DNA of 64,000 nt from an uncultured Gemmatimonadales bacterium (GTDB lineage Bacteria > Gemmatimonadota > Gemmatimonadetes > Longimicrobiales > RSA9), in NCBI GenBank assembly GCA_963798845.1, contig CAWCUS010000002.1, positions 256,001-320,000 of the forward strand, in the 5' to 3' direction. The notes below the pieces were generated by a model that was not told the origin of the DNA, ran no database searches, and worked only from the letters and a program-made list of their open reading frames with translations. Position 1 is the first letter of the stretch. Each line of letters starts with the position of its first letter. Positions 19,260 through 61,415 of this stretch are shown here, piece by piece. The position numbers were made by a program, and so were the translations under genes.

Positions 19260-19284
19260 TTCGTCCGGCGGTTCGGCCGACCCG

Positions 19285-26262: not shown

Positions 26263-27636
<1,374 letters not shown>

Positions 27637-36872: not shown

Positions 36873-37040
36873 ATGAGGTACCCTCGCTTGGTTCGGGTTT
36901 GGCCGTGCTCTCAGGCTAAGGTGCCGCGCGCAAGAGAGGCAATCGGGAGGATTCACCGCCCGGCGGCGGGGAAATCCCTTACCCTTGCGGAGCGCCCACG
37001 TCGACTGGCCCGGGACCGGATGCGCGAGCATATTGCCGGC

Positions 37041-37970
37041 ATGAGCCGTACCCTCGAGTCACCGATCCGTTCGTTCGCCGAGCTGAAGGCTCGCGCCGCC
37101 GAAGTACCGCCCGTGCCGGTGGCCGTGGTGGCCGCCGAGAGCCCGTCGGCGCTGGCTGCCGTCGCGGCCGCGGCGGCGGCCGGAATCGCGCTGCCGGTGC
37201 TTGTTGGCGATGGCGCCCGGATCCGGGACGTCGTTGCGGCAGAGCGGATCCGCGGTCTCGACGGTGCCCGGTGGGTGGAAGCGGCGTCGCCCGAGTCCGC
37301 TGCGTCGATCGCGATCGAGCTCGCCCGGGCGGGCGAGGTGGGGATGCTGCTGAAAGGCGCGCTGCGGACGGACCAGCTGCTGCGCGCGACGCTGGACCGG
37401 GAGAACGGGCTCCGCACCGGCCGCCTTCTCTCGGACGTCCTGCTTTACGAGGACACGCTCTCGGGCTCGGTCCGCCTGGTGGGCGTGACGGACGGCGGGA
37501 TCAACCCGGCGCCGGACGCCGACGCGCTGCGCCGGATCGTGGCCAACGCCGTGGCCGTCTTCCGGGCGCTGGGCGTGGCCAGGCCGCGTGTGGCGCTGCT
37601 CAGCGCCACGGAGATGGTGACCGACGCGGTCCCGTCCACGGTCGTGGCCCGCCAGGTGGCCGACTGGGCGTCGAGGGAGCTGCCGGACGCCGACGTGGAC
37701 GGTCCGCTCGCCCTCGACAACGCCCTCATCCCTTCGGCCGCCCGCGCCAAGGGGATCACCGGTCCCGTGGCCGGCTGCGCGGACATCATGGTCACCCCCG
37801 GGATCGACGCCGGCAACATCCTGGGCAAGGGGGTCAAGTACCTCGGCGGGTCCATCACGGCGCACGTGGTCGTGGGGGCGAGAGTTCCGATCCTGATCCC
37901 GTCGCGGGTGGAGAGCGCCGAAGACAAGCTGCACTCCATCGCCTTCGGGGCGCTGGTGGGCGCGCCGTGA
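37041..37970 (+). CDS. ptb: Phosphate butyryl/acyltransferase
   Basis: LLKG.L.T..LL...LD...GLRTGR.LS, TDGGIN.AP, DGPLALDNA, P.IDAGNILGK, SR.ES..DK. Confidence 0.88.
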   Translation: MSRTLESPIRSFAELKARAAEVPPVPVAVVAAESPSALAAVAAAAAAGIALPVLVGDGARIRDVVAAERIRGLDGARWVEAASPESAASIAIELARAGEVGMLLKGALRTDQLLRATLDRENGLRTGRLLSDVLLYEDTLSGSVRLVGVTDGGINPAPDADALRRIVANAVAVFRALGVARPRVALLSATEMVTDAVPSTVVARQVADWASRELPDADVDGPLALDNALIPSAARAKGITGPVAGCADIMVTPGIDAGNILGKGVKYLGGSITAHVVVGARVPILIPSRVESAEDKLHSIAFGALVGAP

Positions 37971-39043
37971 GCCGGCGCCCGCTGATCCTCGCGCTGAACC
38001 CGGGCTCCACAAGCACGAAGTTGGGCCTCTTCGCCGACGGAGCCGCGATCCTCGAGCACACCGCCACGCATGGCGACGGCGCGCTCGCCCGTTTCGGCGG
38101 CCGTCCGATCCTGGAGCAGCTCGAATTCCGCCTGGAGGCGGTGCGCGACGCCCTGTCCGACCATGGCGCCTCGCCGCGCGACCTGGATGCGGTGGTCGGA
38201 CGGGGCGGGTTGCTGCGCCCGCTGGCCAGCGGCACGTACCGCGTCACGGATGCCATGCTCGAGGAGCTGCGCCGGGCGGAGAGGGGAGAGCACGCGTCGA
38301 ATCTGGGCGCCCTCCTGGCCCGGCGGCTCGCGGATGAGGCCGGCTGTCCGGCGTTCATCGTGGATCCGGTGAGCGTGGACGAGTGGGACGACGTCGCCCG
38401 CATCTCCGGTCTGGCGGGGCTGGACCGGGTGTGCCTGTCCCACGCCCTCAACACGAAAGCGGTGGCGAAGCGGCACGCCGCCGAGATCGAGCGCCCGTAC
38501 GACGAGCTCCGGCTCGTGGTCGCCCACCTGGGGAGCGGCGTGAGCGTCTCCGCGCACCGCGGCGGGCGTATGGTGGACGTCAACAACCCTCGCGAGGAGG
38601 GGCCGTTCTCCACGGAGCGGGCCGGCACGATCCCGGTCATGCGGCTGGTGGAGCGGGTGCTGGCCGACGGGTGGACGCCGGACGAGGCGGACCGGCGCCT
38701 GTTCCGGGAGGGGGGGCTGGTCTCCTACCTGGGCACCCGCGACCTGCGGGACGTGGAAGCGCGCATCGCCGCGGGCGACGACCGGGCCCGCCTCGTGTTC
38801 CGCGCCATGGTGTACCAGGTGGCGAAGGAGATCGGCGCCATGGGGGCCGTCCTCCATGGCCGCGTGGATGCCATACTGGTCACGGGCGGGATGGCCCGGA
38901 GTCAGGCGCTGACCGGCGCGCTCTCCGAGGCCGTGTCGTGGATCGCCTCCGTGTTCGTGTACCCGGGCGAGGACGAGCTGAGGGCGCTGGCCGAAGGGGC
39001 CGCCCGCGCGCTCGCCGGCACGGAGGCGGCGCGCGAGTACTAG
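37967..39043 (+). CDS. buk: Butyrate (branched-chain/acyl) kinase
   Basis: LNPGSTSTK, GRGGLL.P..SGTY, HASNLGA, HALN.KA, HLGSG.SV, GPFS.ERAG, YPGEDE; GTGA overlap with ptb. Confidence 0.93.
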   Translation: MSRRPLILALNPGSTSTKLGLFADGAAILEHTATHGDGALARFGGRPILEQLEFRLEAVRDALSDHGASPRDLDAVVGRGGLLRPLASGTYRVTDAMLEELRRAERGEHASNLGALLARRLADEAGCPAFIVDPVSVDEWDDVARISGLAGLDRVCLSHALNTKAVAKRHAAEIERPYDELRLVVAHLGSGVSVSAHRGGRMVDVNNPREEGPFSTERAGTIPVMRLVERVLADGWTPDEADRRLFREGGLVSYLGTRDLRDVEARIAAGDDRARLVFRAMVYQVAKEIGAMGAVLHGRVDAILVTGGMARSQALTGALSEAVSWIASVFVYPGEDELRALAEGAARALAGTEAAREY

Positions 39044-39053
39044 CGGTCGGGCG

Positions 39054-39791
39054 TCAGAAGCTGAACGCCGCCGCGCCCACCATCCACTCGGCGCCCGTGT
39101 CGAAGGCTACATCGTTGGCTTCCGCCGTCTTCGGCGGGACCGTCAGACGGATCGCCTCCTGCCAGTGATCGCGGGCGATGAACAGGTAGTTGGAGAGTGC
39201 CCCCAGCATCACGGTGCTGGACAGCTTGTCGTTCCCCAGCTCCCGGGCCAGCGCCAGCGCAGGGAAGGTGAGCAGCGTGATCCCGCGCGCTTCCGTTCTC
39301 GCTTCGAGGTCGCGAGGGTAGCCGGCGGTCTTGAGCGACTCGATGCTCGGCGCGATCCGCTGGTCGTTCACGAGCACGATGCCGCCCGGCTCCACCAGCG
39401 ACAGGTGCCGCGCGGCCTCGAGGCGCTCGAACGCCACGAGGAAATCGGCCTCGCCTTCCGGGATGGAGGAGGAGAGGGCCGCGTCGCCGAAGCGCACGGC
39501 GGTGAGAACCGTGCCGCCCCGCTGCGACATTCCGTGCACTTCCGAGGTCAAGACCTGGTGCCCTGCCAACGCCGCGGCCGTGGCCAGCACCCGTGTGGCG
39601 AGGACGGAGCCCTGACCGCCGACTCCCGCAAGCACGATGTTCGTCACATCGCCGTGAGCGACAGGGCGGACGCTTCCGCCGCGGTCGGACGCCTGCTCGA
39701 CCGGGCCTGCCGCTCCCGCGGTCAGCTCTTCCAGGTCCGTGGCCGCGCCCTGCAGGTCCTCGGACACCGACACCCTCGTGCTATCGGTCAC
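39054..39791 (-). CDS. iorB: Indolepyruvate/arylpyruvate:ferredoxin oxidoreductase beta subunit
   Basis: NIVLAGVGGQG, SEVHGMSQRGG.V...VRFG, FE.LEA.R. Confidence 0.9.
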   Translation of the reverse strand: MTDSTRVSVSEDLQGAATDLEELTAGAAGPVEQASDRGGSVRPVAHGDVTNIVLAGVGGQGSVLATRVLATAAALAGHQVLTSEVHGMSQRGGTVLTAVRFGDAALSSSIPEGEADFLVAFERLEAARHLSLVEPGGIVLVNDQRIAPSIESLKTAGYPRDLEARTEARGITLLTFPALALARELGNDKLSSTVMLGALSNYLFIARDHWQEAIRLTVPPKTAEANDVAFDTGAEWMVGAAAFSF

Positions 39792-42700
39792 GGGTCGCCC
39801 CCTTCCTCATGTGGTTGCTGGCCAGCTCCGCCGCGCGGCGGCCCGTGGCCACCGCCTGCGTCACAGTGCCGTGGCCGAACGCCGCATCGCCGCACGCGAA
39901 CACGCCCTGCCGCGACGTGGCCCCGGCGAAGTTGACGTCGATCCGACCGTTCGCCCGGATGCCGCTCCCGTCCAGGAACGCCAGGTCCGTCTGCTCTCCC
40001 ACGGCCAGGATCACCGCGTCACACTGCTCGATCTCCTCGCTCTCCGCCACGGGTACCGGGCGCCGGCGCCCGCTCCCGTCCGGCTCCCCCTGCGCCATGG
40101 CGATGGTCTCGAGCGCGGTCATCCGCCCGCCCTCTGCCACCACCCGGATCGGCGCCCGCTGGAACCGGAACGTCACCCCCTCCTCCCGCGCCTCCTCGAC
40201 TTCGTCGGGGATGGCGGGCATCTCGCGTTCCGTACGCCGGTAGACCACGTCCACCGTGGCGCCCAGCCGGCGGGCCGCGCGGGCGCAGTCGATGGCCGTG
40301 TTCCCGCCGCCCACCACCGTGACGCGGCGACCCAGCTCCACGGTCTCGCCGGCGTTGAAGCGGCGGAGGAACTCGAGCCCGCCCAGCACGGACCCGGGCG
40401 CGTCGACGGCGCCCTCGAGCGTGATGGCGCGAGCGGCGTGCTGGCCCACGGCCACGATCACCGCGTCGTGCTCGTCCGCCAGCTCCGCCAGCGTCGTGTC
40501 CCGGCCGATTCGGGCGCCCGTGCGGAACTCCACGCCAATCGCCGTGAACCGGGCCAGCTCGGCGTCCAGCACCTCGCGCGGGAGGCGGAACGGAGGGATG
40601 CCGCTCCGGAGCATGCCGCCGGGCGCAGCGTCGGCCTCGAAGACCGTGACGCGCCACCCCTTGCGACGGAGCTGCCACGCCGCGGCAAGTCCGGCGGGGC
40701 CCGACCCGATCACCGCCACCGAGCGACCGAGCTCCTCGCCCGGGGAGAGCGTGTCTGCCGGGTAGTTCTCGATCGCCCAGTCGCCCAGAAACTGCTCCAC
40801 CGCCCGCACCGATATCTTGTTCGGGCCGGCCGGGAACCGCTCCACCAGCGAGCGGTGGCGACCCGCGTACGTGGCCGCCTGCGGGAACCCGAGGGCGTTC
40901 ACGTCGTGGTCGCAGGGGTGGGGACAGACACGGGCCGAGACCGCAGGCAGCGGATTCGAGCGCAGCACGACCTCGAGCGCGTCGGCGAGCCGCCCCTGGT
41001 CCACCAGCTCCAGCATGAGCGAGACGTCGATCCCCGCGTTGCAGTCGGCGCACACCTGCTGACAGAGCGTGCAGCCGTTGCAGAGGAGGTCGTTCACCGC
41101 GAGACGACCGTCGCTCTCCTCGATGGCCGGGCAACCCAGCCGGGTGCACGCAAAGCAGTCCGTGCATCGGTCGGCCTCGAGGAAGATCGGGTCGCCGAAC
41201 GAGACCTTCTCCTTGAGCACGCACGGCTTCTCGGCCACCACCACCGCCGGGGCGTCCGTCCCGGACGCCTGATCCAGAGTGCGCCATGCGCCCAGGAGGT
41301 CGTACGGGTCCACCGTGCGGACGTCCTCCACGCCAACGGCCCGGGCGATCGCGGCGATGTCGATGCGCGGCGCGTCGCCCTGGCCGAGCGTGTGCCCGGT
41401 GCCCGGGTGATCCTGGTGCCCGGTCATGGCGGTGGTCCGGTTGTCCAGCACCACCACCGTCCCCTTGCCCCGGTTGTAGACCACGTCCATCAGCCCCGTG
41501 ACGCCGGAGTGATAGAACGTGGAGTCCCCGATCACGCTCACCACCCGCTTCGCATCCGCCGGCGCCAGCACCTTCGCCATGCCGTGCGCCATGCCGATGG
41601 AAGCGCCCATGTTCATGCACGCATCCATGGCATCCAGCGGCGCGAGCGCGCCGAGCGTGTAGCAGCCGATGTCCCCGCTCACGATCGCATCCATGCGCCC
41701 CAGGGCGTGGAACACGCCGCGGTGCGAGCACCCCGGACAGAGCGCCGGCGGCCGTGACGGCAGCGCCGCGGGTACGTCCGCACCCGCCCCGGCGCCGTCC
41801 GCCTCCTCACGGGGAGTGACGCCCGGCCCGGCGACCGCGCGACGAAGCAGCCCCACGCTCAGCTCGCCATACCGTGGCCACGCACGCGCCTCCACCGCCA
41901 CGCCGCGCGCCCGGATCTGCTCCTCGAGGAACGGCTCCAGCTCTTCCGCAACGAACAGCCGCTTCCCCGCGTGCTCCTCAGCGAACTGCCGGATCGCAGC
42001 CTCCGGGAGTGGATACGTCATCCCGAGGCGGAGCACCGGCGCCGCCGGGAAGGCCTCCCGGACGTAGAGGTAGGGGACACCGGCGGTGATGAAGGCGACG
42101 TCGCCTTCGCCCGGCTCCGCTTCCGCCCACCGCTCGGCTTCCGCGGCGAGCGCCGGCATCCGCTCCTCCTCGATCCAGCGGTGGCGGATCCGGCCATGGG
42201 CGGGGAGCACCACGTTCTTCTGACGATCCTTGTGATACGCCCGAAGTCCCACGGGCTCCCGCTTCCCGGCTTCCACCGGCCCCGTGCCGTGGCTCAGGCG
42301 CGTCGTGGTCCGGAGCAGCACCGGCGTGTCGTACCGCTCGGACAGCGCGAAAGCCGCGGCCGTGTAGCGCCGCGCGTCCGCCGGCGTCGACGGCTCCAGA
42401 AGCGGGATGCGGGCGTGGCGGGCGAACAGGCGGTTGTCCTGCTCGTTCTGAGACGAGTGCATGCCGGGGTCGTCGGCGCTCACGACCACCAGCCCGCCGT
42501 TCACCCCCATGTATGCGGACGAGAAGAGCGGGTCGGCCGCCACGTTCACGCCGACGTGCTTCATCGTGGCCAGCGCCCGAGCGCCGCCCAGTGACGCGCC
42601 CACAGCCACTTCCAGCGCCACTTTCTCGTTCGGCGACCACTCGCAGTCGACGCCGCCGAGGTGCGAAAGCGCTTCCAGGATCTCCGTGCTCGGCGTGCCC

Positions 42701-42864
42701 GGGTAGCCGGCGCCCACCCGCACCCCGGCTTCCCACGCCCCCCGCGCGATCGCCTGGTTCCCCGACAACGGCAGCCGCCGGCCCCCGGACCCGCTACCGG
42801 AAGCGACGCCCACCCACGCGCGCTCCTGCCTCTCTGGCCGCGCTGCGGCCCTTCTATCCGTCAT
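39781..42864 (-). CDS. iorA: Indolepyruvate/arylpyruvate oxidoreductase alpha subunit fused to a GltD-like FAD/NAD(P) oxidoreductase
   Basis: GN.AIARGA, GYPGTPSTE, MKHVG.NVA.D, DDPG.HSSQNEQD, CPGCSH, GDIGCY, GDSTF.HSG, TAMTG.Q, two [4Fe-4S] motifs; then NPLP...RVCPHPC, IGSGPAG, GGGNTAID. Confidence 0.9.
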   Translation of the reverse strand: MTDRRAAARPERQERAWVGVASGSGSGGRRLPLSGNQAIARGAWEAGVRVGAGYPGTPSTEILEALSHLGGVDCEWSPNEKVALEVAVGASLGGARALATMKHVGVNVAADPLFSSAYMGVNGGLVVVSADDPGMHSSQNEQDNRLFARHARIPLLEPSTPADARRYTAAAFALSERYDTPVLLRTTTRLSHGTGPVEAGKREPVGLRAYHKDRQKNVVLPAHGRIRHRWIEEERMPALAAEAERWAEAEPGEGDVAFITAGVPYLYVREAFPAAPVLRLGMTYPLPEAAIRQFAEEHAGKRLFVAEELEPFLEEQIRARGVAVEARAWPRYGELSVGLLRRAVAGPGVTPREEADGAGAGADVPAALPSRPPALCPGCSHRGVFHALGRMDAIVSGDIGCYTLGALAPLDAMDACMNMGASIGMAHGMAKVLAPADAKRVVSVIGDSTFYHSGVTGLMDVVYNRGKGTVVVLDNRTTAMTGHQDHPGTGHTLGQGDAPRIDIAAIARAVGVEDVRTVDPYDLLGAWRTLDQASGTDAPAVVVAEKPCVLKEKVSFGDPIFLEADRCTDCFACTRLGCPAIEESDGRLAVNDLLCNGCTLCQQVCADCNAGIDVSLMLELVDQGRLADALEVVLRSNPLPAVSARVCPHPCDHDVNALGFPQAATYAGRHRSLVERFPAGPNKISVRAVEQFLGDWAIENYPADTLSPGEELGRSVAVIGSGPAGLAAAWQLRRKGWRVTVFEADAAPGGMLRSGIPPFRLPREVLDAELARFTAIGVEFRTGARIGRDTTLAELADEHDAVIVAVGQHAARAITLEGAVDAPGSVLGGLEFLRRFNAGETVELGRRVTVVGGGNTAIDCARAARRLGATVDVVYRRTEREMPAIPDEVEEAREEGVTFRFQRAPIRVVAEGGRMTALETIAMAQGEPDGSGRRRPVPVAESEEIEQCDAVILAVGEQTDLAFLDGSGIRANGRIDVNFAGATSRQGVFACGDAAFGHGTVTQAVATGRRAAELASNHMRKGATRDR

Positions 42865-43049
42865 CCGGCTCGCTCCGGAGTTGCTGACCGGGTGCTCCCG
42901 TCACACACTCGAAAAGCTACCCCGGATGCTCAACCGTACAATCGGGGATTCACTGATTTCCCCGGGCTCCTTATCGGGAGTTTCCCCCCTCGGCACGTAG
43001 GGGTTTCGCCCGCGGACGCGCGATCGCACACCCGCGCCCGAGGACGTCG

Positions 43050-43520
43050 CTATGTCCTCGCGACGTCCCCGCCAGCACCGCGCCGCCGCACCAGAAACCG
43101 GAGCTCGCCCGCCTGGACAACCTCGCGGCCCGCCCTCAGCTCCGCCGACAGAGTCACCACACCCCGGTCTCCCTGCCGCGAAACCCGCTTCGACGACACC
43201 TCGAGCGCCACGTGCACCTCCGACCCGGGCACCAGCGGGGCCACGAAGTCCCAGGTCAGCCCCAGGAACGCGATCAGCGTCCCCCGCGTCAGCCCGCGCC
43301 GGTTCAGCAGACCGGTCGCCACGGCAAGACCCAGCGCACCGTGGGCAATCCGTCGGCCGAACACCGACTGCGCCGCGTACGACTCGTCCAGGTGCAGCGG
43401 GTTCACGTCCCCGGACACAGCCGCGAACGCCTCCACGTCCGCCTGCGTCACGACCCGGCTCCCGGTCAGGTAGCCGCGGCCCACCTCGAAGTCGTCGAAC
43501 GTCAGGGATTCCTCGGGCAT
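43050..43520 (-). CDS. MaoC-like (R)-specific enoyl-CoA hydratase/dehydratase
   Basis: FDDFEVG, FAAVSGD.NPLH.D..YA, IAHG; GGAG SD. Confidence 0.88.
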   Translation of the reverse strand: MPEESLTFDDFEVGRGYLTGSRVVTQADVEAFAAVSGDVNPLHLDESYAAQSVFGRRIAHGALGLAVATGLLNRRGLTRGTLIAFLGLTWDFVAPLVPGSEVHVALEVSSKRVSRQGDRGVVTLSAELRAGREVVQAGELRFLVRRRGAGGDVART

Positions 43521-43655
43521 CGTCGGCTCCTGGTCACGCGAAGGCGCTCGGTCCCCGGTGCTCCTCCGCGTGTCCGCGTGAAGACCCTTGACACCCGGGC
43601 CCCGTTGGCGACGTATTACAGCAACACTACGATCGTTAACCATTCGTGACAAGAG

Positions 43656-44513
43656 ATGCCCGCTCGACGTCCCCAGGACCTGGTGTTCACGCTCTTCGGC
43701 GATTTCCTGCTGCACCGGCCATCGCCGGTGTGGGTGGGCAGCCTGATCGCGCTGCTGGAGCCGCTGGGGCTGAGCGAAACGAACGTGCGGACGGTGCTGT
43801 CGCGGATGGCGGGGAAGGGTTGGCTGAGAGCGGAGCGGGCGGGTCGCCGCAGCTATTACGCGCTGACGGGGCGTGGCCGGCGGCTTCTGGAGGAGGGGGA
43901 GACGCGGATCTACCGGCCGCGGGATGCGGGGGGTTGGGACGGGGAGTGGACGCTGCTGGCGTATTCGATTCCGGAGGAGCAGCGGGGTCAGCGGGACCGT
44001 CTGCGGGTTCGCCTGGAGTGGCTCGGGTTCGGTTCGCTGGGGAACGGGCTGTGGGTGACTCCGCACGACGTCGCCGACCCGGTGCGTGAGATGGCGGATG
44101 AGCTGGAGGTGAGGGAGTACGTGGAGGTGTTCCGCGGCCGGCACCTGGGCTTGGGCGACGCCCGCGAGCTGGTGGGTCGCTGCTGGGATCTGGCGGGGCT
44201 GAACGCGCGTTACGAGGCGTTCATCGAGCGTCATCTGGACGGGTGCGTGGCGCTGAAGGAGGAGGGCCATGCGTCCATCGAGCCGCGGGACGCGTACGTA
44301 CGGCGGTTCCGGCTGGTGCACCAGTACCGGGACTTCCCGCTCCAGGACCCGTTCCTCCCCAGGGAATTGCAGCCTGAGCACTGGGCGGGGGAGTGCGCGC
44401 TGAGCCTGTTCAACCATTACCACGAGCTGCTGGCGGCGCCGGCGGACCGTTTCGTGGAGCCGCTCTTCGAAGCTGGAAGTTCACGAAGGCGGCCGGCCGT
44501 TGTGGTCAGGTGA
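43656..44513 (+). CDS. paaX: PaaX family transcriptional regulator
   Basis: LVFTLFGD, VR..LSRM...GWL, Y.LT..G, WDGEW, R.RLR..L.WLGFG, WDL..L...Y, DPFLP.EL.P..W. Confidence 0.9.
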   Translation: MPARRPQDLVFTLFGDFLLHRPSPVWVGSLIALLEPLGLSETNVRTVLSRMAGKGWLRAERAGRRSYYALTGRGRRLLEEGETRIYRPRDAGGWDGEWTLLAYSIPEEQRGQRDRLRVRLEWLGFGSLGNGLWVTPHDVADPVREMADELEVREYVEVFRGRHLGLGDARELVGRCWDLAGLNARYEAFIERHLDGCVALKEEGHASIEPRDAYVRRFRLVHQYRDFPLQDPFLPRELQPEHWAGECALSLFNHYHELLAAPADRFVEPLFEAGSSRRRPAVVVR

Positions 44514-44532
44514 GGCGACCGTCCGTGGTGGT

Positions 44533-44611
44533 ATCACACGAAGAGCGCGAAGCCACGGAGTCTCTCTCGTGATCTTCGTCTTCCTTCGTGGCCTTCCTGT
44601 CTTCGTGCGAT
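44533..44611. repeat. Imperfect palindrome built of CACGAAG / CTTCGTG units
   Basis: ATCACACGAAGA ... TCTTCGTGCGAT ends (11/12 complementary), with internal GCGAAG, CACGGAG, CTCGTG, CTTCGTC and CTTCGTG copies. Confidence 0.6.
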
Positions 44612-44623
44612 AAGGAGCCGAGC

Positions 44624-45733
44624 ATGCCGAAGTTCGAGCCGCGTCCCGCCGAGTCCTACGACTTCCGGGAGATCCTGTACGAGAAGGGCGACTGGGTGGC
44701 GCGTGTCACGCTGAACCGTCCCCACAACTACAACGCCTACTCGACGGAAGCGCTGCGCGAGCTGATCACTGCGTTCCACGACGCGGCGTTCGACGACAGG
44801 GTGGGCGTGGTGGTCTACACGGGCGCGGGGACGAAGGCGTTCTGCACGGGCGGAGACGTGAAGGAGTACGAGGTGGAGTACACGCAGCGCCCGCGTGACT
44901 ACTGGAAGTACATGCGGCTGTTCCGTGAGTATATCGAAAGCATCGTTCAGCTGGGCAAGCCCACCATCGCGCGACTGAACGGCATGGCTGTGGGCGGGGG
45001 CAACGAGAGCCAGATGGCGTGCGACCTCGCCGTGATGGCCGAGCACGCGTACATCGGCCAGGTAGGAACACGAGTGGGGAGCGTGGCGGCCGGCGGGGCG
45101 ACGCAGTGGCTCCCCCTGCTGGTCGGGGACCGGCGCGCCCGCGAGATCCTCATGTTCAACGGCCGGATCCCGCCGCGGCAGTGCCTGGACTGGGGTCTCG
45201 TGAACCGGGTGGTGCCGAGCGTGGTCAGGGACGGGGCGTTCATCGAAGGCGCGTCGTCGGAACAGATCGCAAAAGCGCAGAACGCGGAGGACGGCTACGC
45301 GATCTCGCTGGAGAAGCTGGACGAAACGGTAGCGGAGATGGCGGAGGTGCTGCTCCAGCAGTTCCCGGAATGCACCCGCTACACCAAGCAGCAGGTGAAC
45401 TTCTGGAAGGAGCTCGCGTGGAGCCAGACGGTCGGCCACGCGGGAGACTGGCTGGCGCTTCACTACTCGTCGCTCGAGCCGTGGGAAGGGATGCGGGCGT
45501 TCGTGCAGAAGCGGAAGCCCCGCTACATGGAGTTGCGGGAGCGCGCGGCGAACGGTGGCTCCAGCGAATTCCTGTGGGGCGCGCCGGGGGGCGACTGTCC
45601 CGCGTGCGGCGCGGAAGGTATTCCGACCGGCTTCAATTTCTGCGGCGCGTGCGGAGCCGAGCTGGGGACGGACGGGGCCGGCGCGGGGGCCCTCGAACCG
45701 CGGGACGCTGCGAGAGCCCCGGCGGGAGGGTGA
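44624..45733 (+). CDS. oah: 6-oxocyclohex-1-ene-1-carbonyl-CoA hydrolase (Oah/BamA/BzdY-like) with C-terminal zinc ribbon
   Basis: Crotonase fold with Oah-like motifs YNAYST, KAFCTGG..KEY...Y, Y.KYMRLF, GGAT..LP, FPECT..TK, WLAL; tail CPAC..CGAC; AAGGAG SD. Confidence 0.8.
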   Translation: MPKFEPRPAESYDFREILYEKGDWVARVTLNRPHNYNAYSTEALRELITAFHDAAFDDRVGVVVYTGAGTKAFCTGGDVKEYEVEYTQRPRDYWKYMRLFREYIESIVQLGKPTIARLNGMAVGGGNESQMACDLAVMAEHAYIGQVGTRVGSVAAGGATQWLPLLVGDRRAREILMFNGRIPPRQCLDWGLVNRVVPSVVRDGAFIEGASSEQIAKAQNAEDGYAISLEKLDETVAEMAEVLLQQFPECTRYTKQQVNFWKELAWSQTVGHAGDWLALHYSSLEPWEGMRAFVQKRKPRYMELRERAANGGSSEFLWGAPGGDCPACGAEGIPTGFNFCGACGAELGTDGAGAGALEPRDAARAPAGG

Positions 45734-45734
45734 A

Positions 45735-46502
45735 GTGGCATACCGGCACCTTCGCGTCGACACCGGCGCCGCTGTCGCCCGTGTGGTCCTGAATCGTCCT
45801 CCGCTGAACGTCCTGACCATCGAGATGCTGGACGAGCTGGTCGAGGCGATCGCGGCCGCCTCGGCGGATCCGGCGACGCGGGTGGTGGTGCTCACGGGGG
45901 AGGGCAGAGCCTTCTGCGCCGGGGTGGACGTGGCGGACCACACAGTCGAGCGCGTGGGAACAATGATCGAGTCGTTCTCCCGCGCCATCGGCGCGCTCCT
46001 GTCGATGGATCTTCCGGTGGTGGCGGCGCTGAACGGCGCCGCGCTGGGCGGCGGCCTCGAGCTCGCGCTGGCCTGCGACGTGGTCCTGGCGCGGGCGGGG
46101 TCCAAGCTGGGCCAGCCGGAAATCCGCCTCGGCGTCTTTCCCCCGGCCGCGGCGGCGCTGCTCCCCCGGCGCGTGGGAGTGCAGCGGGCGCTGGACCTGG
46201 TGCTCACGGGCCGCACGGTGACGGCAGAAGAGGCGGCCCCGATGGGGCTGGTCACGGCCGTGCTCCCGGCCGACGACTTCGGCGCGGCCGTGAACGACTA
46301 CGTGGCGCAGGTGGCCGGTCTCAGCCGGCCGGTCCTGGCGCTGGCGAAGCGAGCCGTGATCCAGGGGCTGGACCGGCCGCTGTCGGCGGCGTTGGTGGGG
46401 GCGGACACGCTGTACCTCAACGAGCTGATGGCTCTGCGCGATCCCCACGAGGGACTGGCGGCGTTCGCGGAGAAGCGCGCGCCGGTCTGGAGCGACGAGT
46501 AG
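45735..46502 (+). CDS. dch: Cyclohexa-1,5-diene-1-carbonyl-CoA hydratase (Dch/BzdW-like crotonase)
   Basis: RPPLNVL, FCAGVDVADH, GGGLEL, GQPEIRLGVFPP, LYL.ELM...D..EGL.AF; operon context. Confidence 0.82.
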   Translation: MAYRHLRVDTGAAVARVVLNRPPLNVLTIEMLDELVEAIAAASADPATRVVVLTGEGRAFCAGVDVADHTVERVGTMIESFSRAIGALLSMDLPVVAALNGAALGGGLELALACDVVLARAGSKLGQPEIRLGVFPPAAAALLPRRVGVQRALDLVLTGRTVTAEEAAPMGLVTAVLPADDFGAAVNDYVAQVAGLSRPVLALAKRAVIQGLDRPLSAALVGADTLYLNELMALRDPHEGLAAFAEKRAPVWSDE

Positions 46503-46503
46503 C

Positions 46504-47697
46504 ATGGCGACACCGAAGCGCGAGATCCCGGCCCCGGAGCGGCTGCTGGACATCGACCTCTCGACCCCGCTCGACGAGGTGCTGGCCCGCTGCCGCGAGG
46601 TGGTGGAGGACGCGGAGTACCCGACCGTGCGGAAGTGGCGGGAGGGTGGTGGCAAGGTGCTCGGCCACTTCCAGGTCTACTTCCCCGAGGAGCTGGCGCA
46701 CGCGGCGGGCATGCTCCCGGTGAAGATCCGGGGCGGGCAGGTGGACCGGCGGGAAGCCGACTCCCGCTTCGGCTCCGCCATCTGCTCCATCCCCCGGACC
46801 ACGCTCGAGCTCGCCATGAACGGCACGCTGGTGCCGGACCTGTTCGTCACCCACCCGATCTGCGACGTGGCCCGCAACCTGGCGGGGATCTGGGAGCGCA
46901 ACGTGACCACGCCGGCGCAGATCCTCTACTTCCCGCAGAACCCCAACTCCCGCTTCTCCGCCGACTTCCTCACCGCGGAGTACCGGCGTCTGCTGGGCGA
47001 GATCGAGGCCGTCGTGGGCCGGACGGTGGCGGAGGACGAGATCCGCGATTCGGTGGCCCTTTTCAACGAGAACCGTCGCCTGCTGCGTGAGCTCTACGCC
47101 ATCAAGCGGGAGGAGCCGTGGCGCCTGCCGGTGGACGAGGCGTACGTGCTGGTGGCGCTGGCCGGGCTCATCCCCCGGGAGGAGCACAACCACGTGCTGC
47201 GCACGATCATCCCGCGCATCCGGGAGCGCGAGGCGAGAAAGCAGGACCGGATGCGTGTGGTGTTCGAGGGTGGGTTCTGCGAGCAGCCGCCTCTCGACCT
47301 GCTCCGGTCCATCGCCCAGTTCGTGTACGTGGTGGATGACGACCTCCTCATCGGCCTGCGCTGGATCACCGAGGACGTGGATCTGGCGGGCGATCCGGTG
47401 GGCAGGCTGGCGGAAGCGTACCTGGAGCGGTCGTCGTACAGCCCCGTGCAGCACGACCTGCGCAAGCCGAAGGAGCAGATGCTGCTGCAGCGGATCCTCG
47501 CCGCACGCGCCGAGGCGGCCATCGTGGCCGCGGCCAAGATGTGCGAGCCGGGTCTGGACGAGCAGGTGGCGTACTCCCAGGCGCTGGACCGCGAGAAGAT
47601 CCCGTACTTCGTCACCGAGTTCGAGGAGAACATGACGGCCTACGACCATCTGCAGATCCAGCTCGAGACCTTCGTCGAGAACCTGCTCTTCGAGTGA
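46504..47697 (+). CDS. bcrC: Class I benzoyl-CoA reductase subunit C (gamma)
   Basis: [61 protein letters not shown]; resembles Thauera BcrC as recalled. Confidence 0.85.
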
Positions 47698-47705
47698 GGG
47701 GGCGC

Positions 47706-49037
47706 ATGAATCCGGTGACTGCGGACACGATCCACGGGCGGGCCTTCCGCCAGGGCAGGGAGCTCTTCGACGACTGGTACGGCCAGTTGACCCGCGCTCA
47801 CGAGACGGGCGAGCAGGCGGCGTACGTGTTCGTGATGGGCAGCCTGATGGAGATCCTGCGCACGTTCGGGCTTCACGGGGTCTTCCCGGAGATCAACTCG
47901 CTCCAGACTGCGGTGAAGAAGGTCTCGGACGGGTACCTGAGCCAGGCGGAGGACGAGGGCTTCTCGCCGGACGTGTGCGGCTACGTGAAAGCGGACTACG
48001 CCCTCCAGCGTCGCAACGGCGAGCACCCGCGCGGCATGATCCCGCCGCCGGCCATATCGGTGCTCACCAACGCGTGCAACACGTATCTCAAGTGGGGCGA
48101 GATCTGGGAGCGCATGTACGACGCTCCGGTCTTCACGGTGGACATCCCGCAGTCCCGCTCCGTTTCCGACAGCGCGGCGGGTGTCGGGTTCGCGGCCGAC
48201 CTGGAGTACGTGCGGCGGCAGCTGGACGAGCTGATCGAGGTGCTCGAGGGTCTCACGGGCAGGCGCTTCGACATCGACCGCTTCCGCGAGGTGCTGGGTC
48301 ACGTCAACGACATGGGGCGGCACTACCGGCGCGTGCTGGAGCTGAACGCCCGGGCGCCGGCCGCGTTCGACGCGGTGCTGGAGGGCACCATGTACCTGGG
48401 GGTGGCCAATGCGCTCCGCGGCACGAAGGAGGGCGCGGACTACTTCCGCGACCTGGCCGAGGAGCTGGAGCTGCGCATGGCCGAGGGCCGCGGGGCCCTG
48501 GGCGAGACGCCCGAGCGGCACCGCCTGATCTTCGTGGGCGTGCCCTGCTATCCGATCTTCTCGCGCTTTCACGCCATGTTCAGCGGGTGGGGCGGGGCGT
48601 TCGTGAGCTCCACCTACCTGTGGTTCGCCTCCGGCGGCCTCGACCTGGATTTCGAGTACGACCTGTCGCGCCCGCTGGAGAGCCTGGCCGAAGGCGTGCT
48701 GCGCGGCGTCCGCCGCGCCACGGACGCCATGCTGTTCCAGGACCGGCTGCTCATCGAGGCCGTGGACCGCTACCACGCGGACGGGGTGGTCTACCACCCC
48801 GTGAAGAGCTGTCGCACCGTCTCCACCAGCCTGGCCGACAGCCGCCGGGTGGTGCTCCGGGAGCGCGATGTTCTCGCTCTCTACATCGAGAGCGACATGA
48901 TGGACAAGCGGGTGGTCTCGGAAGCCCAGCTGAAGAACCGCATCGACGCCTTCTTCGAGGGGCTGGAGAGTCGGAGGCTGCGGATGAACGGCGCGGCCGC
49001 CGGCAGCGGCGCCGCCGCCAGCGAGGAGGTCGCATGA
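47706..49037 (+). CDS. bcrB: Class I benzoyl-CoA reductase subunit B (beta)
   Basis: [36 protein letters not shown]...DY, KSCR, IESD..D.R..S...KNR. Confidence 0.85.
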
Positions 49038-49903
49038 GCTACGCGGGCGGAGTGGACGTCGGCTCGACCCAGACCAAGGCCGTGGTGGTGGACGGGGACC
49101 GCCGCATCGTGGGCCGCAGCCTCATCGACACGGGGGCCAACGTGGTGGAGGCGGCGGAGAACGCGTTCGCGCTGGCGCTGGCGGAGGCCGGTCTCGAGCG
49201 CGACGACGTGGACTTCGTCATCGGGACCGGCTACGGCCGCTACAAGGTGGAGTTCGGCGACACCCAGGTGACGGAGATCGTGTGCCACGCCCGCGGGGCG
49301 GCGGAGATGTTCCCGGGCACGCGCACGGTGCTGGACATGGGGGGCCAGGACACGAAGGCGATCCGGGTGCAGCGCGGTGGCGAGGTCCTGGACTTCTGCA
49401 TGAACGACAAATGCTCGGCGGGCACCGGCCGCTTCCTCCAGTCGGCGGCCGCGGCGCTGGAGCTGGACCTGGCGGAGCTCGGGCCCACGGCGCTGCGGGG
49501 GCGTCGGCCGGTGCCCATCAGCACCACGTGCACCGTGTTCGCGGAGTCGGAGGTGCTGTCGTGGCTGGCGAGGGGTCGCAAGCTAGAGGACATCCTGCTG
49601 GGCGTGCACCAGTCCATCGCCAAGCGCTCGTTCGGCCTTCTCAAGCGGGTGGGCGTGGAGGAGGAGGTGACCTTCACGGGCGGGGTGACGAAGAACCCGG
49701 CCATGGTGCACGTGCTGAACGAGCTGCTCGGCACCGAGATGAACGTGGGCGCCGAGTCCCACTTCATCGGCGCTCTGGGCGCGGCCCTGTTCGCGCTCGA
49801 GCGGGCGGAGGGCGGGGTCATCCCCGCGGGCGATCTCACCGGCGCGGCCGCGGACGGCGATGCGGCCCGGAGCTGCGCCACGGGACGGGAGGTGGTCGCA
49901 TGA
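49034..49903 (+). CDS. bcrA: Benzoyl-CoA reductase ATP-binding activator subunit (short BcrA / BzdQ-like)
   Basis: ASKHA motifs [57 protein letters not shown] overlaps at both ends. Confidence 0.8.
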
Positions 49904-50721
49904 GCTGCACGGCGGGGGTGGACGTCGGCTCGACGTACACGAAGGCCGCGATCCTCGACGACGCCGGCCAGTTGCTGGGCCGGAGCATGGCGCCGACCGG
50001 CTTCCGCCTGGAGGCGGCGGCGCGGGCGGCGCTGGACGCCGCGCTGGCCGAGGCGGGTGTCGACGCGGCGGACGTGGTCTACACCGCCACCACCGGCTAC
50101 GGCCGCAACCAGGTGGCGTTCCGCGACGTCCAGGCCACGGACCTGACGGCGCAGTCGTGGGGGACTCGCTGGTTCTTCCCGTCTACCCGAACGGTGCTGG
50201 ACATCGGCGGGCAGACCATGAAGGCCATGCGCGTGGACGACGCGGGCAAGGTCCGCTCGTTCCGCCTGAACGACAAGTGTGCCGCGGGCACGGGCGCGTT
50301 CCTGGAGAAGACGGCGCGCTACCTCGGCTACGGCCTCGAGGAGATCGGGATGCTCGTCCAGGGCGCGGAGGCGTCGGTGCCCATCAGCGGCGTGTGCGCG
50401 GTGTTCGCCGAGTCGGAGGTGATCAACCACGTGAGCAACGGGAGCCAGCCCGGCGAGATCATGCTGGGCGCCATGGAGTCGCTCATCGAGAAGAGCGTGC
50501 GGCTCATGAAGCGCGTGCAGATGGAGCCGGAGTTCACGCTGGTGGGCGGGATCATGCGCTTCCCCACCATGGTGCAGGTCATGCGCGAGCACCTGGCGGA
50601 GGGCGTCAACGTGCCGCCCGAGCCGCTGGTCCAGTACACCGGCGCCATTGGTGCCGCGATCCTCGCACGGCGCAGGCTGGAGAAGCTCGAGGCCGAGGAC
50701 GCCGAGGCCGCGGCCGCGTGA
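49900..50721 (+). CDS. bcrD: Benzoyl-CoA reductase ATP-binding activator subunit (BcrD / BzdP-like)
   Basis: [52 protein letters not shown]. Confidence 0.8.
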
Positions 50722-50984
50722 GCGCGCCGGTGCCCGCACTCGACATCGGGCCGGCCGCCAGCGAGCGCGTCCGGGAGCGCGACGGGGCCCTGGCGCTGGA
50801 TGGCTGGACGCGACGCTTCATCGGCGCCCCGCCCCGTCTTGGGGAGATGGCGGCGCTCTACCGCTCGGTGGGCCAGGAGGTGCTGCTCGAGCCCCTGGAG
50901 GACGATGACCTGGCGCACGAGTGCGCCGGGTGCACGCTCGCCCTCTCCCTCTTTCGCGTCGTCTACACGAGGATCCCCCGATGA
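50718..50984 (+). CDS. Small hypothetical CxxC protein (88 aa), not called as a separate ORF in the track
   Basis: GTGA overlap with bcrD stop and ATGA overlap with had start; GWTRRF...PRL.E...LY...GQEVLLEP...CAGC...VYTR. Confidence 0.75.
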   Translation: MSAPVPALDIGPAASERVRERDGALALDGWTRRFIGAPPRLGEMAALYRSVGQEVLLEPLEDDDLAHECAGCTLALSLFRVVYTRIPR

Positions 50985-52003
50985 AGGCCGCTCTCTTCCA
51001 TGGCGCCAACCGCCCGCTCACCATCGAGGACATCCCCGTGCCGGAGCCGGGCCGCGGCGAGGTGCTGGTGAAGGTGGCGGGGTGCGGTGTGTGCCACACG
51101 GACCTCCACTACATCGACCACGGCACGCCCACCTTCAAGAACCCGCCGATGGTCCTCGGCCACGAGATCGCGGGCACACTGGCCAGCCCCGACCCGACCG
51201 GGCGGCTGCTTGAGGGCGAGCACGTGCTCCTCCCGGCCGTGCTGTCGTGCGGCCACTGCGACGCGTGCCGCGGGGGGCGGGAGAACATCTGCCAGAACGG
51301 GATCATGCTGGGCAACAACATCGATGGCGGGTACGCCGAGTACGTCGCCGTCCCCGCAAAGGACGTGTTCCGGCTCCCCGACGAGATCCCGCTCGTGGAG
51401 GGCTCCATCATCGCCGACGCCCTCACCACCCCCTTCCACGCGGTGATGAACCGCGGCCGCGTCCGCCCGGGCGACCGGGTGGTGGTGGTGGGGTGTGGCG
51501 GGGTCGGACTGAACGTCGTGCAGATGGCCGCCGTGGTGGGCGCTCGGGTGGTGGGCGTGGACGTGTCGCCCGAGAAACTGGCGTGGGCCGAGCGCCTGGG
51601 CGCGGAAGCCACGTTGAACCCGACCGGGGTGGAGCGCCCGGACAGGGCGCTTCGCGCCCTCACCGACGGCGGCGCCGACGTGGCGTTCGAGGCCGTCGGC
51701 CGCCCCGACACGCAGGCGCTGGCCGTGGACGCGGTGAAGACCGGCGGGCGCGTGGTCTTCGTGGGCTACAGCCCGAAGGCCATGGAGCTCAACGCCGGCC
51801 GGGTCATGTTCCGGGAGCTCGAGGTCGTGGGATCGCTCGGCTGTCGCCCGGTCGACTACCCGCGCGTCATCGACCTCGTCCGCCAGGGCCGCGTCGAAGT
51901 GACGGCGCTGGTGACCCGCCGCTTCACGCTCGACGAGATCGGCGACGCGTTCGACTTCCTGCGCAGCGGGGCATCGATCCGGAGCGTGGTGACCCCCACC
52001 TGA
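50981..52003 (+). CDS. had: 6-hydroxycyclohex-1-ene-1-carbonyl-CoA dehydrogenase (Zn-dependent ADH)
   Basis: VAGCGVCHTDL, LGHEI.G, CGHCDAC......C, ADA.TTP, G.GGVG; operon context. Confidence 0.85.
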   Translation: MKAALFHGANRPLTIEDIPVPEPGRGEVLVKVAGCGVCHTDLHYIDHGTPTFKNPPMVLGHEIAGTLASPDPTGRLLEGEHVLLPAVLSCGHCDACRGGRENICQNGIMLGNNIDGGYAEYVAVPAKDVFRLPDEIPLVEGSIIADALTTPFHAVMNRGRVRPGDRVVVVGCGGVGLNVVQMAAVVGARVVGVDVSPEKLAWAERLGAEATLNPTGVERPDRALRALTDGGADVAFEAVGRPDTQALAVDAVKTGGRVVFVGYSPKAMELNAGRVMFRELEVVGSLGCRPVDYPRVIDLVRQGRVEVTALVTRRFTLDEIGDAFDFLRSGASIRSVVTPT

Positions 52004-52006
52004 CAC

Positions 52007-52294
52007 CTACGGCTTCGGCGCCCCTCCATCATCCGGCGGCGGGTTCTCCTGTCCGCCGTTCGGCGCCGGCGTGCGGCGCCCGTCGGCCGGCCGCGTGCCG
52101 GGGCCCACCGCTGCCCCCGAAGCCGGGGCGTCCACGGCACCCGCGGCCGGCGCGGTGGTGGTCTCGGCGGCCGGCGCGGCTGTGCCGAACGTGTTCGATC
52201 CGCCCCAGAGCAGCCATGCCCCGATGCCGACCGCCACGACCACCAGCGCGATCACCACCCAGCGCCAGACGTGGCGGCGCGGCCGCCGCTCCAT
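52007..52294 (-). CDS. Small single-pass membrane protein (possible 1-bp frameshift at the 5' end)
   Basis: MERRPRRHVWRWVVIALVVVAVGIGAWLLW plus low-complexity tail; the SD-linked ATG at 52310 is out of frame. Confidence 0.6.
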   Translation of the reverse strand: MERRPRRHVWRWVVIALVVVAVGIGAWLLWGGSNTFGTAAPAAETTTAPAAGAVDAPASGAAVGPGTRPADGRRTPAPNGGQENPPPDDGGAPKP

Positions 52295-52311
52295 TCTCGA
52301 TCTCAGCCATG

Positions 52312-61197: not shown

Positions 61198-61415
61198 GGC
61201 GTATTTCCGTTGTGTTCGTGACGGGGATGCGAGGGTTCGCAGGTTAGGTTGCCGACCCGGTTGCGCGCGCGCAAGGAGAGTCCGGCCAGGGCGAGGGGTG
61301 CGGGCTCATCCGCTTTCCCGAGGACGTGGACGCCGGCAGGACGCCGCAGCGGCGTCCCGGCAGCCCTCCACCGCACGGTTGCGCCGACGCCGACCGCCGC
61401 CGAAACTCCACCTTC

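Follow-up and report, generated by a model that had tools for sequence, protein, structure and literature searches.

We analyzed a 64,000-nt stretch of DNA, here called the window, from an uncultured Gemmatimonadales bacterium (contig CAWCUS010000002.1 of assembly GCA_963798845.1, positions 256,001 to 320,000). At positions 37,041 to 52,003 of the window, genes for a predicted class I benzoyl-CoA reductase lie next to genes for an indolepyruvate-type 2-oxoacid oxidoreductase (Ior), a phosphate acyltransferase (Ptb) and an acyl kinase (Buk). The window has a G+C content of about 70%, and reading frames were picked by third-position G+C, then by Pfam and NCBIfam matches and start-codon context. 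In the resulting layout, ptb and buk converge on iorB and iorA::gltD, and maoC is divergent from the series paaX-oah-dch-gamma-beta-alpha-delta-orf88-had, in which gamma to delta are the four reductase genes. Neighboring genes overlap by 4 nt at five start/stop junctions, as GTGA at ptb/buk and delta/orf88 and as ATGA at beta/alpha, alpha/delta and orf88/had. A preliminary description of this DNA, made from the letters alone, had proposed the same gene set, the ATGA/GTGA coupling and an origin in Gemmatimonadota. Pfam, NCBIfam and start mapping found the gene set in its place, the coupling is borne out by the five overlaps, and the phylum fits the closest relatives of both the reductase and the fused IorA. 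A consensus scan of 36800-52400 for promoters and terminators was uninformative (0 promoters, and 2 terminator-like sites against 4.1 expected), and a search of sequencing runs returned no RNA data, only three DNA metagenome runs from one study with shares of 0.06-0.23.

In facultative anaerobes, the anoxic degradation of aromatic compounds depends on class I benzoyl-CoA reductases as its key enzymes. Work on them has been confined almost entirely to a few Proteobacteria, in which they occur together with a CoA ligase, a ferredoxin and an oxidoreductase for 2-oxoglutarate. Fuchs et al. (2025, PMC11971306) describe three types, BCR, MBR and BZD. In the window, the four subunits are encoded together by two PF06050 (HGD-D) and two PF01869 (BcrAD_BadFG) genes, which are adjacent and overlapping on the plus strand: gamma (46504-47697, MbdN/BcrC-like), the catalytic beta (47706-49037, MbdO/BcrB-like), and the ATPases alpha (49034-49903, MbdQ-like, 289 residues) and delta (49900-50721, MbdP-like). 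Gamma and beta are the only HGD-D genes in the whole genome. In searches against the PDB, gamma matched MbdN (9g87_B) at 522 bits, HadC at 121 and BzdN at 91, and beta matched MbdO (9g87_A) at 461 bits, HadB at 118 and BzdO at 67. Alpha scored 377 bits against MbdQ (9gai_D) and delta 281 bits against MbdP (9gai_C), compared with 226 and 159 for dehydratase activators. Across the subunits, the Mbd scores are thus 1.7 to 4 times the Had scores, and the predicted enzyme is a class I benzoyl-CoA reductase of the MBR type, whose structure has already been solved (MbdONQP, PDB 9g87/9gai). The preliminary description had likewise called it a class I benzoyl-CoA reductase, to be refuted by a grouping with 2-hydroxyacyl-CoA dehydratases; the subunits instead side with Mbd, far above Had. 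It had also singled out a short bcrA; the length is real, but it is not unusual, as the solved MbdQ chain has 269 residues.

Conserved residues are consistent with this assignment. Cys91, Cys124 and Cys369 of beta align with Cys95, Cys128 and Cys380 of BzdO, which hold its catalytic cluster (PMC11971306). At the position of BzdO His131, the window beta has Tyr and MbdO has Phe. Both alpha and delta carry the GVDVGST motif of the ASKHA family at their N-termini as well as Cys127 and Cys166, which, from the HgdC structure, we take to be ligands of a bridging [4Fe-4S] cluster. The Thauera-type models TIGR02259-02263 stayed under their equivalog cut-offs (274 bits vs 421 for gamma with TIGR02263, and 208 vs 487, 203 vs 578 and 143 vs 313), as did the bzd models TIGR03190-03192 (87, 75 and 198 bits vs 454, 449 and 380), and the HadBC models of NCBIfam also match, at 143-156 bits. 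With the Bcr, Dch, Had and Oah equivalogs all under their cut-offs, the exact substrate of the pathway is a matter of homology, and benzoyl-CoA or a substituted analogue would fit.

The genes on either side of the reductase resemble those for the subsequent steps of the benzoyl-CoA pathway. The oah-like gene (44588-45733, plus strand) encodes a putative ring-opening crotonase, whose best NCBIfam match is TIGR03200 (dearomat_oah, 202 bits, cut-off 464), followed by BadI and MenB. Its C-terminus (45596-45655) carries a four-Cys zinc-ribbon-like motif, CPACG...CGACG, outside the crotonase fold. The dch-like dienoyl-CoA hydratase gene (45735-46502, plus strand) matches TIGR03189 at 174.7 bits (cut-off 292.5), a score that generic enoyl-CoA hydratase models roughly equal, and the had-like gene (50981-52003, plus strand), for a Zn-dependent 6-hydroxycyclohex-1-ene-1-carbonyl-CoA dehydrogenase with the Pfam domains ADH_N and ADH_zinc_N, has TIGR03201 as its best match (254.9 bits, cut-off 338.65). 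We infer that the three products work like the named enzymes, although they fall short of strict family membership. The product of maoC (43050-43520, minus strand) is (R)-specific enoyl-CoA hydratase-like (PF01575, 80 bits), and in NCBIfam it matches PaaZ best, in the hydratase part at the C-terminus.

A scan of one genome per species yielded 216 loci with relatives of beta, and we compared the best 80 (52-73% identical), with flanks limited to the fetched sequence. Where single examples are named below, L denotes one of these related loci, G a genome in a 301-genome sample of the window's phylum, and G000 the window's own genome. The 80 loci come from Gemmatimonadota (the closest, at about 70%), Chloroflexota, Acidobacteriota, Planctomycetota, Eisenbacteria, Marinimicrobia and Elusimicrobiota, and also from a few Proteobacteria and "Methanobacteriota" archaea, and the core oah/dch-gamma-beta-alpha-delta-orf88-had is kept across them. 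In the phylum sample, 48 of the 301 genomes have a beta orthologue (at least 58% identity). Class I reductase genes in metagenome-assembled genomes of many phyla have been reported by Dong et al. (2019, PMC6472368). A literature search combining benzoyl-CoA reductase with Gemmatimonad gave, among titles, none devoted to such a locus type.

More distant clusters also occur. Two loci of family f5, L124 (G016:C4:1208001-1228000) and L125 (G230:C9:155001-175000), hold another BCR/HAD-like cluster, in which gamma and beta share 32-35% identity with those of the window and are followed by oah of the window's type (58-61%), dch and two more HGD-D/ATPase sets. An in-frame TGA was flagged inside the match in 13 of the 14 genomes that hold only a 33-35% identical beta paralogue. 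We considered a selenoprotein and rejected it; the tblastn alignment of L125, the one example inspected, has no internal stop, and the TGA is probably the gene's own stop. Separately, a gene of the tryptophanase/tyrosine phenol-lyase family follows the reductase operon in five Gemmatimonadota and three archaeal loci (L016, L017, L044, L091, L094, L081, L090 and L095), with a hemerythrin-domain gene beside it in at least L016, L017 and L091. The window's own genome has a 74% identical orthologue of this lyase a short way past the edge of the window, about 18.6 kb downstream of had (G000:C2:326637-328019).

Between delta and had lies orf88 (50718-50984, plus strand), which encodes a small conserved protein of 88 residues. 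It matches no Pfam or NCBIfam family, and its Atlas neighbors are all named "hypothetical protein" (scores 0.83-0.87). An alignment of 29 copies shows invariant W30, C69, C72, T84 and R85, and a profile search among 1.84 billion representatives returned 1039 clusters at 50% identity (E<=0.001), nearly all of 70-130 residues. The AlphaFold (AF2) model, with a predicted local distance difference test (pLDDT) score of 87.7, is an alpha/beta unit of three strands in which the CxxC immediately precedes a helix; Foldseek gave it no PDB match at E<=0.001, and a wide VIA-align comparison reached a best Z of 4.0. In 67 loci the sequence extends far enough to judge, and in 57 of these the gene comes after delta in the same orientation; it is present in 45 of the 301 phylum genomes, namely 44 of the 48 that are beta-positive and 1 of the other 253. 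Because of this position and co-occurrence, orf88 is a specific fifth gene of the MBR-type reductase operon, and its product is probably accessory to this type of reductase. The sole homologue in a beta-free genome (G012:C104:7860-8066) lies 4 kb from an IorA gene (C104:2141-3862).

At the head of the operon, paaX (43656-44513, plus strand) encodes a PaaX-family repressor with three PaaX Pfam domains over their cut-offs and a TIGR02277 score of 255.2 against 264.55. It is the only PaaX in the genome (a single PF07848 match). Canonical aerobic paa genes were not found in the genome; there is only a weak PaaA/PaaC-like pair, which scores under the cut-offs and has unrelated surroundings. Of the 80 loci, 16 have a paaX gene ahead of the operon (11 Gemmatimonadota and 5 Chloroflexota), and maoC holds the equivalent divergent place beside it in L016, L082 and L091. 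Upstream of paaX there is a palindrome of the type ATATGTCAC-(~24 nt)-GTGACATAT, often with a central TACGATCGTA. Read by eye, it is present in 15 of these 16 loci, that is in all 11 Gemmatimonadota and in 4 of the 5 Chloroflexota, with none in L049. The window's copy, in the divergent promoter region just upstream of paaX (about 43613-43655), is degenerate. A genome-wide regular-expression search for further operator copies was fruitless, with a strict pattern that missed even the window's degenerate copy. The operators of PaaX in E. coli and Pseudomonas presumably have two inverted arms of 6-9 nt about 25 nt apart, a layout that the palindrome matches. Between paaX and oah, the window also has an imperfect inverted repeat (44532-44612) with 29-nt arms that are 76% complementary and have TATCACACGAAG and CTTCGTGCGATA as outer arms. 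It spans the intergenic region and runs into the start of oah, CACGAAG/CTTCGTG occurs several times there, and the corresponding regions of relatives have other lengths and other sequences.

The preliminary description had noted that the window contains neither a CoA ligase nor a stand-alone ferredoxin gene, and both statements hold for the window, the one on the ligase by family search also for the whole genome. The genome is 96% complete and has 13 AMP-binding matches, none of them within the window. Nine AMP-binding open reading frames were scanned, which account for 10 of the 13 matches; the others are two domains of a 2707-residue multi-domain frame and a fragment beside L013. None of the nine reached the cut-off of the benzoate-CoA ligase family (best 214 vs 375), and they resemble fatty-acid, acetate and MenE-type ligases. 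Searching the whole genome with TIGR02262, the model of that family, gave nothing at E<=1e-80, phenylacetate-CoA ligase (PaaK) was not found in the genome (best 38.9 vs 646 bits), and neither was a family III CoA-transferase. A Cys-motif scan found no small ferredoxin frame in the window and no 2[4Fe-4S] ferredoxin in the genome, where the one small ferredoxin is 7Fe FdxA-like (C6:385286-385585). The same scan picked up frames that look like AprB, DsrO and DsrL (G000:C3:126980-147949), which by appearance hint at a dissimilatory sulfur cluster.

This situation is shared by the relatives. With the ligase of L016 as query, an AMP-binding gene was detectable in only 4 of the 80 loci, and a small two-cluster ferredoxin frame is present in at most 1 of the 80, inside an oxidoreductase gene region. 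Clusters free of ligase and ferredoxin genes are therefore the rule for the MBR-type reductase in uncultured phyla. The preliminary description had found the organization unfamiliar from characterized systems; in fact the enzyme type has already been solved, and such clusters are usual in these phyla.

How the window's pathway might obtain its CoA thioesters is suggested by the neighboring Ior genes. The iorA gene (39781-42864, minus strand) encodes a fusion of 1027 residues with the Pfam domains POR_N, TPP_enzyme_C, Fer4_20 and Pyr_redox_2. Residues 33-606 match TIGR03336 at 646.6 bits (cut-off 650.9; up to 648.7 in the genome search), and residues 606-1021, which fall outside that model, match PRK12771 at 362 bits as a GltD/NfnB-like, NAD(P)-binding iron-sulfur (Fe-S) flavoprotein. 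The beta-subunit gene iorB (39054-39791, minus strand) has PF01558 at 133 bits and reaches at most 199.6 bits with the IorB equivalog models (cut-off 237). Databases hold more than 100 clusters of fused IorA of about 1000 residues, the closest from Longimicrobiales, under the names "indolepyruvate ferredoxin oxidoreductase alpha subunit" or "FAD-dependent oxidoreductase"; no characterized IorA::GltD fusion was found among these homologues.

We searched the 301 phylum genomes with beta, fused IorA, Buk, TIGR02262, TIGR03336 and the orf88 alignment. With TIGR03336 and a threshold of 583 bits, IorA is found in 21 genomes, of which 13 are beta-positive, and G030 adds a fragment at a contig end; the search with fused IorA agrees. 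In the window's class, 12 of the 13 IorA genomes are beta-positive, the exception being G167. The benzoate-CoA ligase family is over its cut-off in 110 of the 301 genomes, including one that is flagged unpublished (G182). Among beta-positive genomes, it is over the cut-off in 0 of the 13 with IorA (G053 has a sub-cut-off match only) and in 25 of the 35 without. The contrast recurs within family f1 (G000 vs G179 and G180), within genus g50 (G053 vs G083, G138, G150 and G151) and within family f7 (G075 vs G086, G258, G270 and G280). The compared genomes are kin, and the counts overstate their independence, a point that weighs against our interpretation; despite this kinship, several separate within-group contrasts agree in direction.

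Gene positions point the same way. In L016, a close syntenic relative, a benzoate-CoA ligase gene (591 bits, cut-off 375) stands beside maoC and divergent from paaX, at the place that iorAB has in the window, and it has no orthologue in the window's genome (best 33% identity). Seven genomes of family f4 have unfused IorAB genes at 5-7 kb downstream of beta, four Chloroflexota loci have IorAB next to the reductase operon, on its far side, and IorAB lies within 7 kb of the reductase in at least 8 of the 12 beta-positive IorA genomes of the window's class. In G075, a single strand carries gltD-buk-iorA-iorB-ptb-tetR-had-oah, which reach the contig end. Because the IorA and ligase distributions are complementary and L016 shows a positional replacement, Ior most likely takes the place of the ligase as the feeder of CoA thioesters in G000 and in 12 other ligase-free reductase genomes, as far as sequence comparison can tell.

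The two remaining genes have a different distribution. The products of ptb (37041-37970, plus strand; phosphate acyl(butyryl)transferase) and buk (37967-39043, plus strand; butyrate-type acyl kinase) differ in how clearly they classify. Ptb has the Pfam PTA_PTB domain (PF01515, 127.6 bits), and its best NCBIfam models are phosphate butyryl- and acetyltransferases, every one under its cut-off (TIGR02706 230.6 bits vs 410.5). Buk exceeds the TIGR02707 equivalog cut-off (455.7 bits vs 289.1). Buk is present in 9 of the 301 genomes, and among the 48 beta-positive genomes only in G000 and G075; ptb and buk were found in none of the 80 related loci. G167, which belongs to the window's family, has the convergent ptb-buk/iorB-iorA::gltD block without a beta orthologue, maoC or paaX, in a chromosomal context like that of the window (RecQ, DAO, cytochrome c and a frame without an assigned role). 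Thus, ptb and buk travel with ior and not with the reductase, contrary to the general module in which the preliminary description had placed them, and the window is a junction of two modules that are each conserved separately. As ior, ptb and buk are not seen in the 11 closest PaaX-type Gemmatimonadota loci within the fetched flanks, the adjacency of ior and the reductase in the window is a lineage-specific juxtaposition.

We lean, with slightly better than even confidence, towards a reading in which MBR-type ring reduction is joined to an Ior module that replaces the CoA ligase, with Ptb-Buk as a side branch and orf88 as an accessory. In the reductase module, alpha and delta would hydrolyze ATP and push low-potential electrons into the Fe-S pair of beta and gamma, which would reduce benzoyl-CoA, or a substituted analogue, to the dienoyl-CoA. 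Dch would then hydrate this product, Had would oxidize it and Oah would open the ring, in the order suggested by homology to Thauera and Aromatoleum. The PaaX-family repressor is predicted to bind the palindrome in the divergent promoter region and presumably is released by an aryl-CoA. In the other module, the domain architecture suggests that Ior forms aryl-CoA thioesters by oxidative decarboxylation of aryl 2-oxoacids, with NAD(P)+ receiving the electrons by way of the fused Fe-S flavoprotein. Ptb-Buk, tied to Ior, may convert surplus acyl-CoA to the acid and ATP. We also counted in favor of this reading that genes for peptidases and amino-acid catabolism abound in the window.

Several points weigh against it. 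The reductase requires a carbonyl conjugated to the aromatic ring. The oxoacids of Phe, Tyr and Trp would yield arylacetyl-CoAs through Ior, which a Birch-type reductase should not accept. No gene was recognized for their conversion to benzoyl-CoA, so the "self-contained" module of the preliminary description does not hold; its proposal of aryl-CoA formation by Ior fared better in part, as the linkage to the reductase and the complementarity with the ligase are borne out, but the products from these three amino acids are not benzoyl-CoA. A PadBCD-like enzyme of the type II dimethyl sulfoxide (DMSO) reductase family was not recognized in the genome (best TIGR03479 253 vs 985), in a search that classified four of eight molybdopterin matches and had no PadB reference sequence, hence no exclusion. 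The four are of DmsA type, PhsA type, formate dehydrogenase and Qrc/ActB type, with a DmsAB-type enzyme on C1. A Por-type cluster (PorC-GltD::PorD-PorA-PorB, G000:C1:626.7-631.2 kb) has the module set of PadEFGHI, under the Pad cut-offs (306 vs 700, 198 vs 700 and 159 vs 300). Ior might instead use arylglyoxylates, which would give aroyl-CoA directly. Further objections are that the Bcr, Dch, Had and Oah models all stay under their cut-offs; that at least 8 other acyl-CoA ligases of unassigned specificity are encoded in the genome; that eight IorA genomes of other families (f10 and f11) have no beta orthologue; that G167 has the ior block by itself; that the fetched flanks of the 11 closest PaaX-type loci contain neither ior nor ptb nor buk; and that 185 bp separate maoC and iorA. 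Finally, a GltD-linked Kor-type oxidoreductase beside the operon in L051 and L054 fits a role in electron supply equally well.

The evidence from the distributions also feeds other explanations. Ior::GltD and Ptb-Buk may be an independent ATP module for amino-acid 2-oxoacids that sits here by chance or under loose co-regulation, with benzoyl-CoA made from benzoate by an unrecognized ligase. We regard this as unlikely. The reductase-free block of G167 with its equal synteny, the rarity of Buk among reductase genomes and of ptb-buk in the related loci, the IorA genes of f10 and f11, and the unassigned AMP-forming ligases all speak for it, as does PRK08190, a family of maoC-ptb fusions that matches both window genes. 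Mere juxtaposition does not account, however, for the 12 of 13 IorA genomes of the window's class that have the reductase, at least 8 of them with IorAB at 7 kb or less, for the 0/13 vs 25/35 split of the ligase family, or for the ligase of L016 at the ior position. Alternatively, Ior::GltD/IorB could be the electron supply of the reductase, like the 2-oxoglutarate:ferredoxin/NADP+ oxidoreductases that are induced along with class I reductases in Thauera and Azoarcus, with Ptb-Buk recovering ATP. A 2-oxoacid oxidoreductase of two subunits next to a class I reductase has a direct precedent, and in Azoarcus evansii an NADP-dependent oxidoreductase is said to regenerate ferredoxin (cited in PMC8163825). 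GltD-KorA-KorB, reminiscent of the NADP-linked 2-oxoglutarate oxidoreductase of Azoarcus, is divergent from the MBR-type operon in two Gemmatimonadota loci (L051 2745-6300 and L054 1-2300), L098 has an isocitrate/isopropylmalate dehydrogenase gene between the operon and iorAB, and ferredoxin genes are all but missing from the clusters (at most 1 of 80 loci). We nevertheless judge a donor role distinctly unlikely. With IorA in only 13 of the 48 reductase genomes, it is not a general donor, and the lack of a ligase in exactly those 13 would go unexplained; the fused GltD suggests NAD(P)+ as acceptor, whose potential is too positive for the reductase, and the genome encodes three more oxidoreductase systems and an RnfC gene at other places.

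Between ligase replacement and electron supply stands a combination of the two for the ligase-less carriers, in which Ior acts on arylglyoxylates (or on arylpyruvates after an extra conversion) and supplies both aroyl-CoA and two low-potential electrons. In such a scheme, orf88 would be the partner for electron entry or docking, GltD would be an overflow to NAD(P)+ and Ptb-Buk would recover ATP, so that a ligase and a free ferredoxin become needless. We offer it as a speculation with little probability. The remaining alternative concerns the reductase itself, which could be a 2-hydroxyacyl-CoA dehydratase or another BCR/HAD-family enzyme that acts on a non-aromatic or arylacetyl thioester. The sub-threshold scores with the benzoyl-CoA pathway equivalogs and the HadBC matches are what such a case would build on, but it is highly improbable, given the margin of the MbdO/N/Q/P scores over the Had scores, two different, reductase-like ATPase genes where a dehydratase would have a single activator gene, and flanking genes that match Oah, Dch and Had best in a set kept across phyla.

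Oxidoreductases with a GltD-like partner also occur outside the window. A second cluster with a GltD-like, NAD(P)-binding Fe-S flavoprotein, GltD-KorA-KorB, lies at G000:C4:357.8-362.7 kb, in addition to the Por-type cluster with its GltD-like flavoprotein on C1. Because two further oxidoreductase clusters carry such a partner, NAD(P)-linked oxidoreductases seem to be the rule in this genome. At G000:C2:66-78 kb, a KorAB-type oxidoreductase, a 1853-residue PFOR-like open frame and an RnfC gene stand together, and may form a ferredoxin:NAD+ system able to serve the reductase.

Elsewhere in the window, many genes of peptide and amino-acid catabolism are found at 574-19451, 26263-27636 and 59059-61305, including peptidases M3, S9, M24 and S46, DUF5700, an asparaginase, a class III aminotransferase, a pyridoxal phosphate (PLP) decarboxylase and a Glu/Leu/Phe/Val dehydrogenase. 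A two-gene molybdenum hydroxylase (20307-23124), with a [2Fe-2S] small subunit and a large subunit that binds the molybdenum cofactor but without an FAD subunit, sits 21 kb upstream of the reductase operon.

These results bear on how anoxic aromatic degradation is recognized in genomes. The MBR type is common in Gemmatimonadota and in many uncultured phyla, usually without an adjoining ligase or ferredoxin gene. The complementarity of IorA and ligase suggests a ligase-free entry of amino-acid-derived oxoacids into the benzoyl-CoA pathway, for which genome-based predictions of aromatic degraders in soils and sediments would have to allow. The physiological electron entry of this enzyme is known only from Proteobacteria; orf88, whose co-occurrence with the MBR type is nearly perfect, is a candidate for an accessory protein or a redox partner. 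A PaaX-family repressor with a conserved putative operator also provides a handle for finding the true inducer and hence the substrate of the pathway.

Among known systems, the closest is the mbd cluster of Azoarcus/Aromatoleum sp. CIB. It shares with the window the four reductase subunits (MbdONQP), the shortness of the alpha and delta ATPases, and a hydratase, dehydrogenase and ring hydrolase nearby. We take its MbdM to be a ferredoxin. The cluster is described with MbdM, the CoA ligase MbdA, an ABC transporter, and the TetR repressor MbdR, which is induced by 3-methylbenzoyl-CoA (PMC4424350). The window differs in having no ligase or ferredoxin gene, a PaaX-family regulator, the order gamma-beta-alpha-delta and the extra orf88. 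That order is shared with Thauera aromatica, which reportedly has bcrCBAD-fdx together with had, dch, oah and korAB; the pathway enzymes and a nearby 2-oxoacid oxidoreductase are also common to both, and among the family models those of Thauera are best for gamma and beta. However, the window scores lie well under the Thauera cut-offs (274 vs 421 and 208 vs 487), the window alpha lacks the long N-terminal extension of BcrA, and the neighboring oxidoreductase is of Ior type and not of Kor type. In Thauera, fdx presumably follows bcrD, and orf88 occupies that place in the window.

The route from arylpyruvates is not new in itself. For Aromatoleum aromaticum EbN1, IorAB has been proposed to make phenylacetyl-CoA straight from phenylpyruvate, bypassing the ligase, and the bridge from phenylacetyl-CoA through phenylglyoxylate to benzoyl-CoA is assigned to PadBCD and PadEFGHI (PMC9765128). 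EbN1 retains ligases, in contrast to the window's genome, which in turn has no recognized PadBCD-like enzyme, and the window IorB is unlike PadE (33 bits vs a cut-off of 300). PadEFGHI and the 2-oxoglutarate:NADP+ oxidoreductase of Azoarcus evansii nonetheless resemble the window's Ior in combining an oxidoreductase core, ferredoxin-like clusters and an NAD(P)-binding flavoprotein in anaerobic aromatic metabolism; for the A. evansii enzyme, we presume a subunit make-up of this kind. In the window, unlike in these enzymes, the flavoprotein is fused to an IOR-family alpha subunit. Modules of ptb and buk that turn acyl-CoA into ATP are known from fermenters, such as the clostridial butyrate and the enterococcal branched-chain keto-acid clusters. 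The window resembles them in the translational coupling of a phosphotransacylase gene to a butyrate-type kinase gene beside a 2-oxoacid-oxidizing enzyme, and differs in its Gemmatimonadota host, where buk is rare (9/301), and in its partner, the Ior::GltD fusion. Against this background, the enzyme itself is of a known type, and what is new here is the organization, which combines a PaaX-family regulator, the probable use of Ior for the ligase, the lack of a ferredoxin gene, and the conserved orf88.

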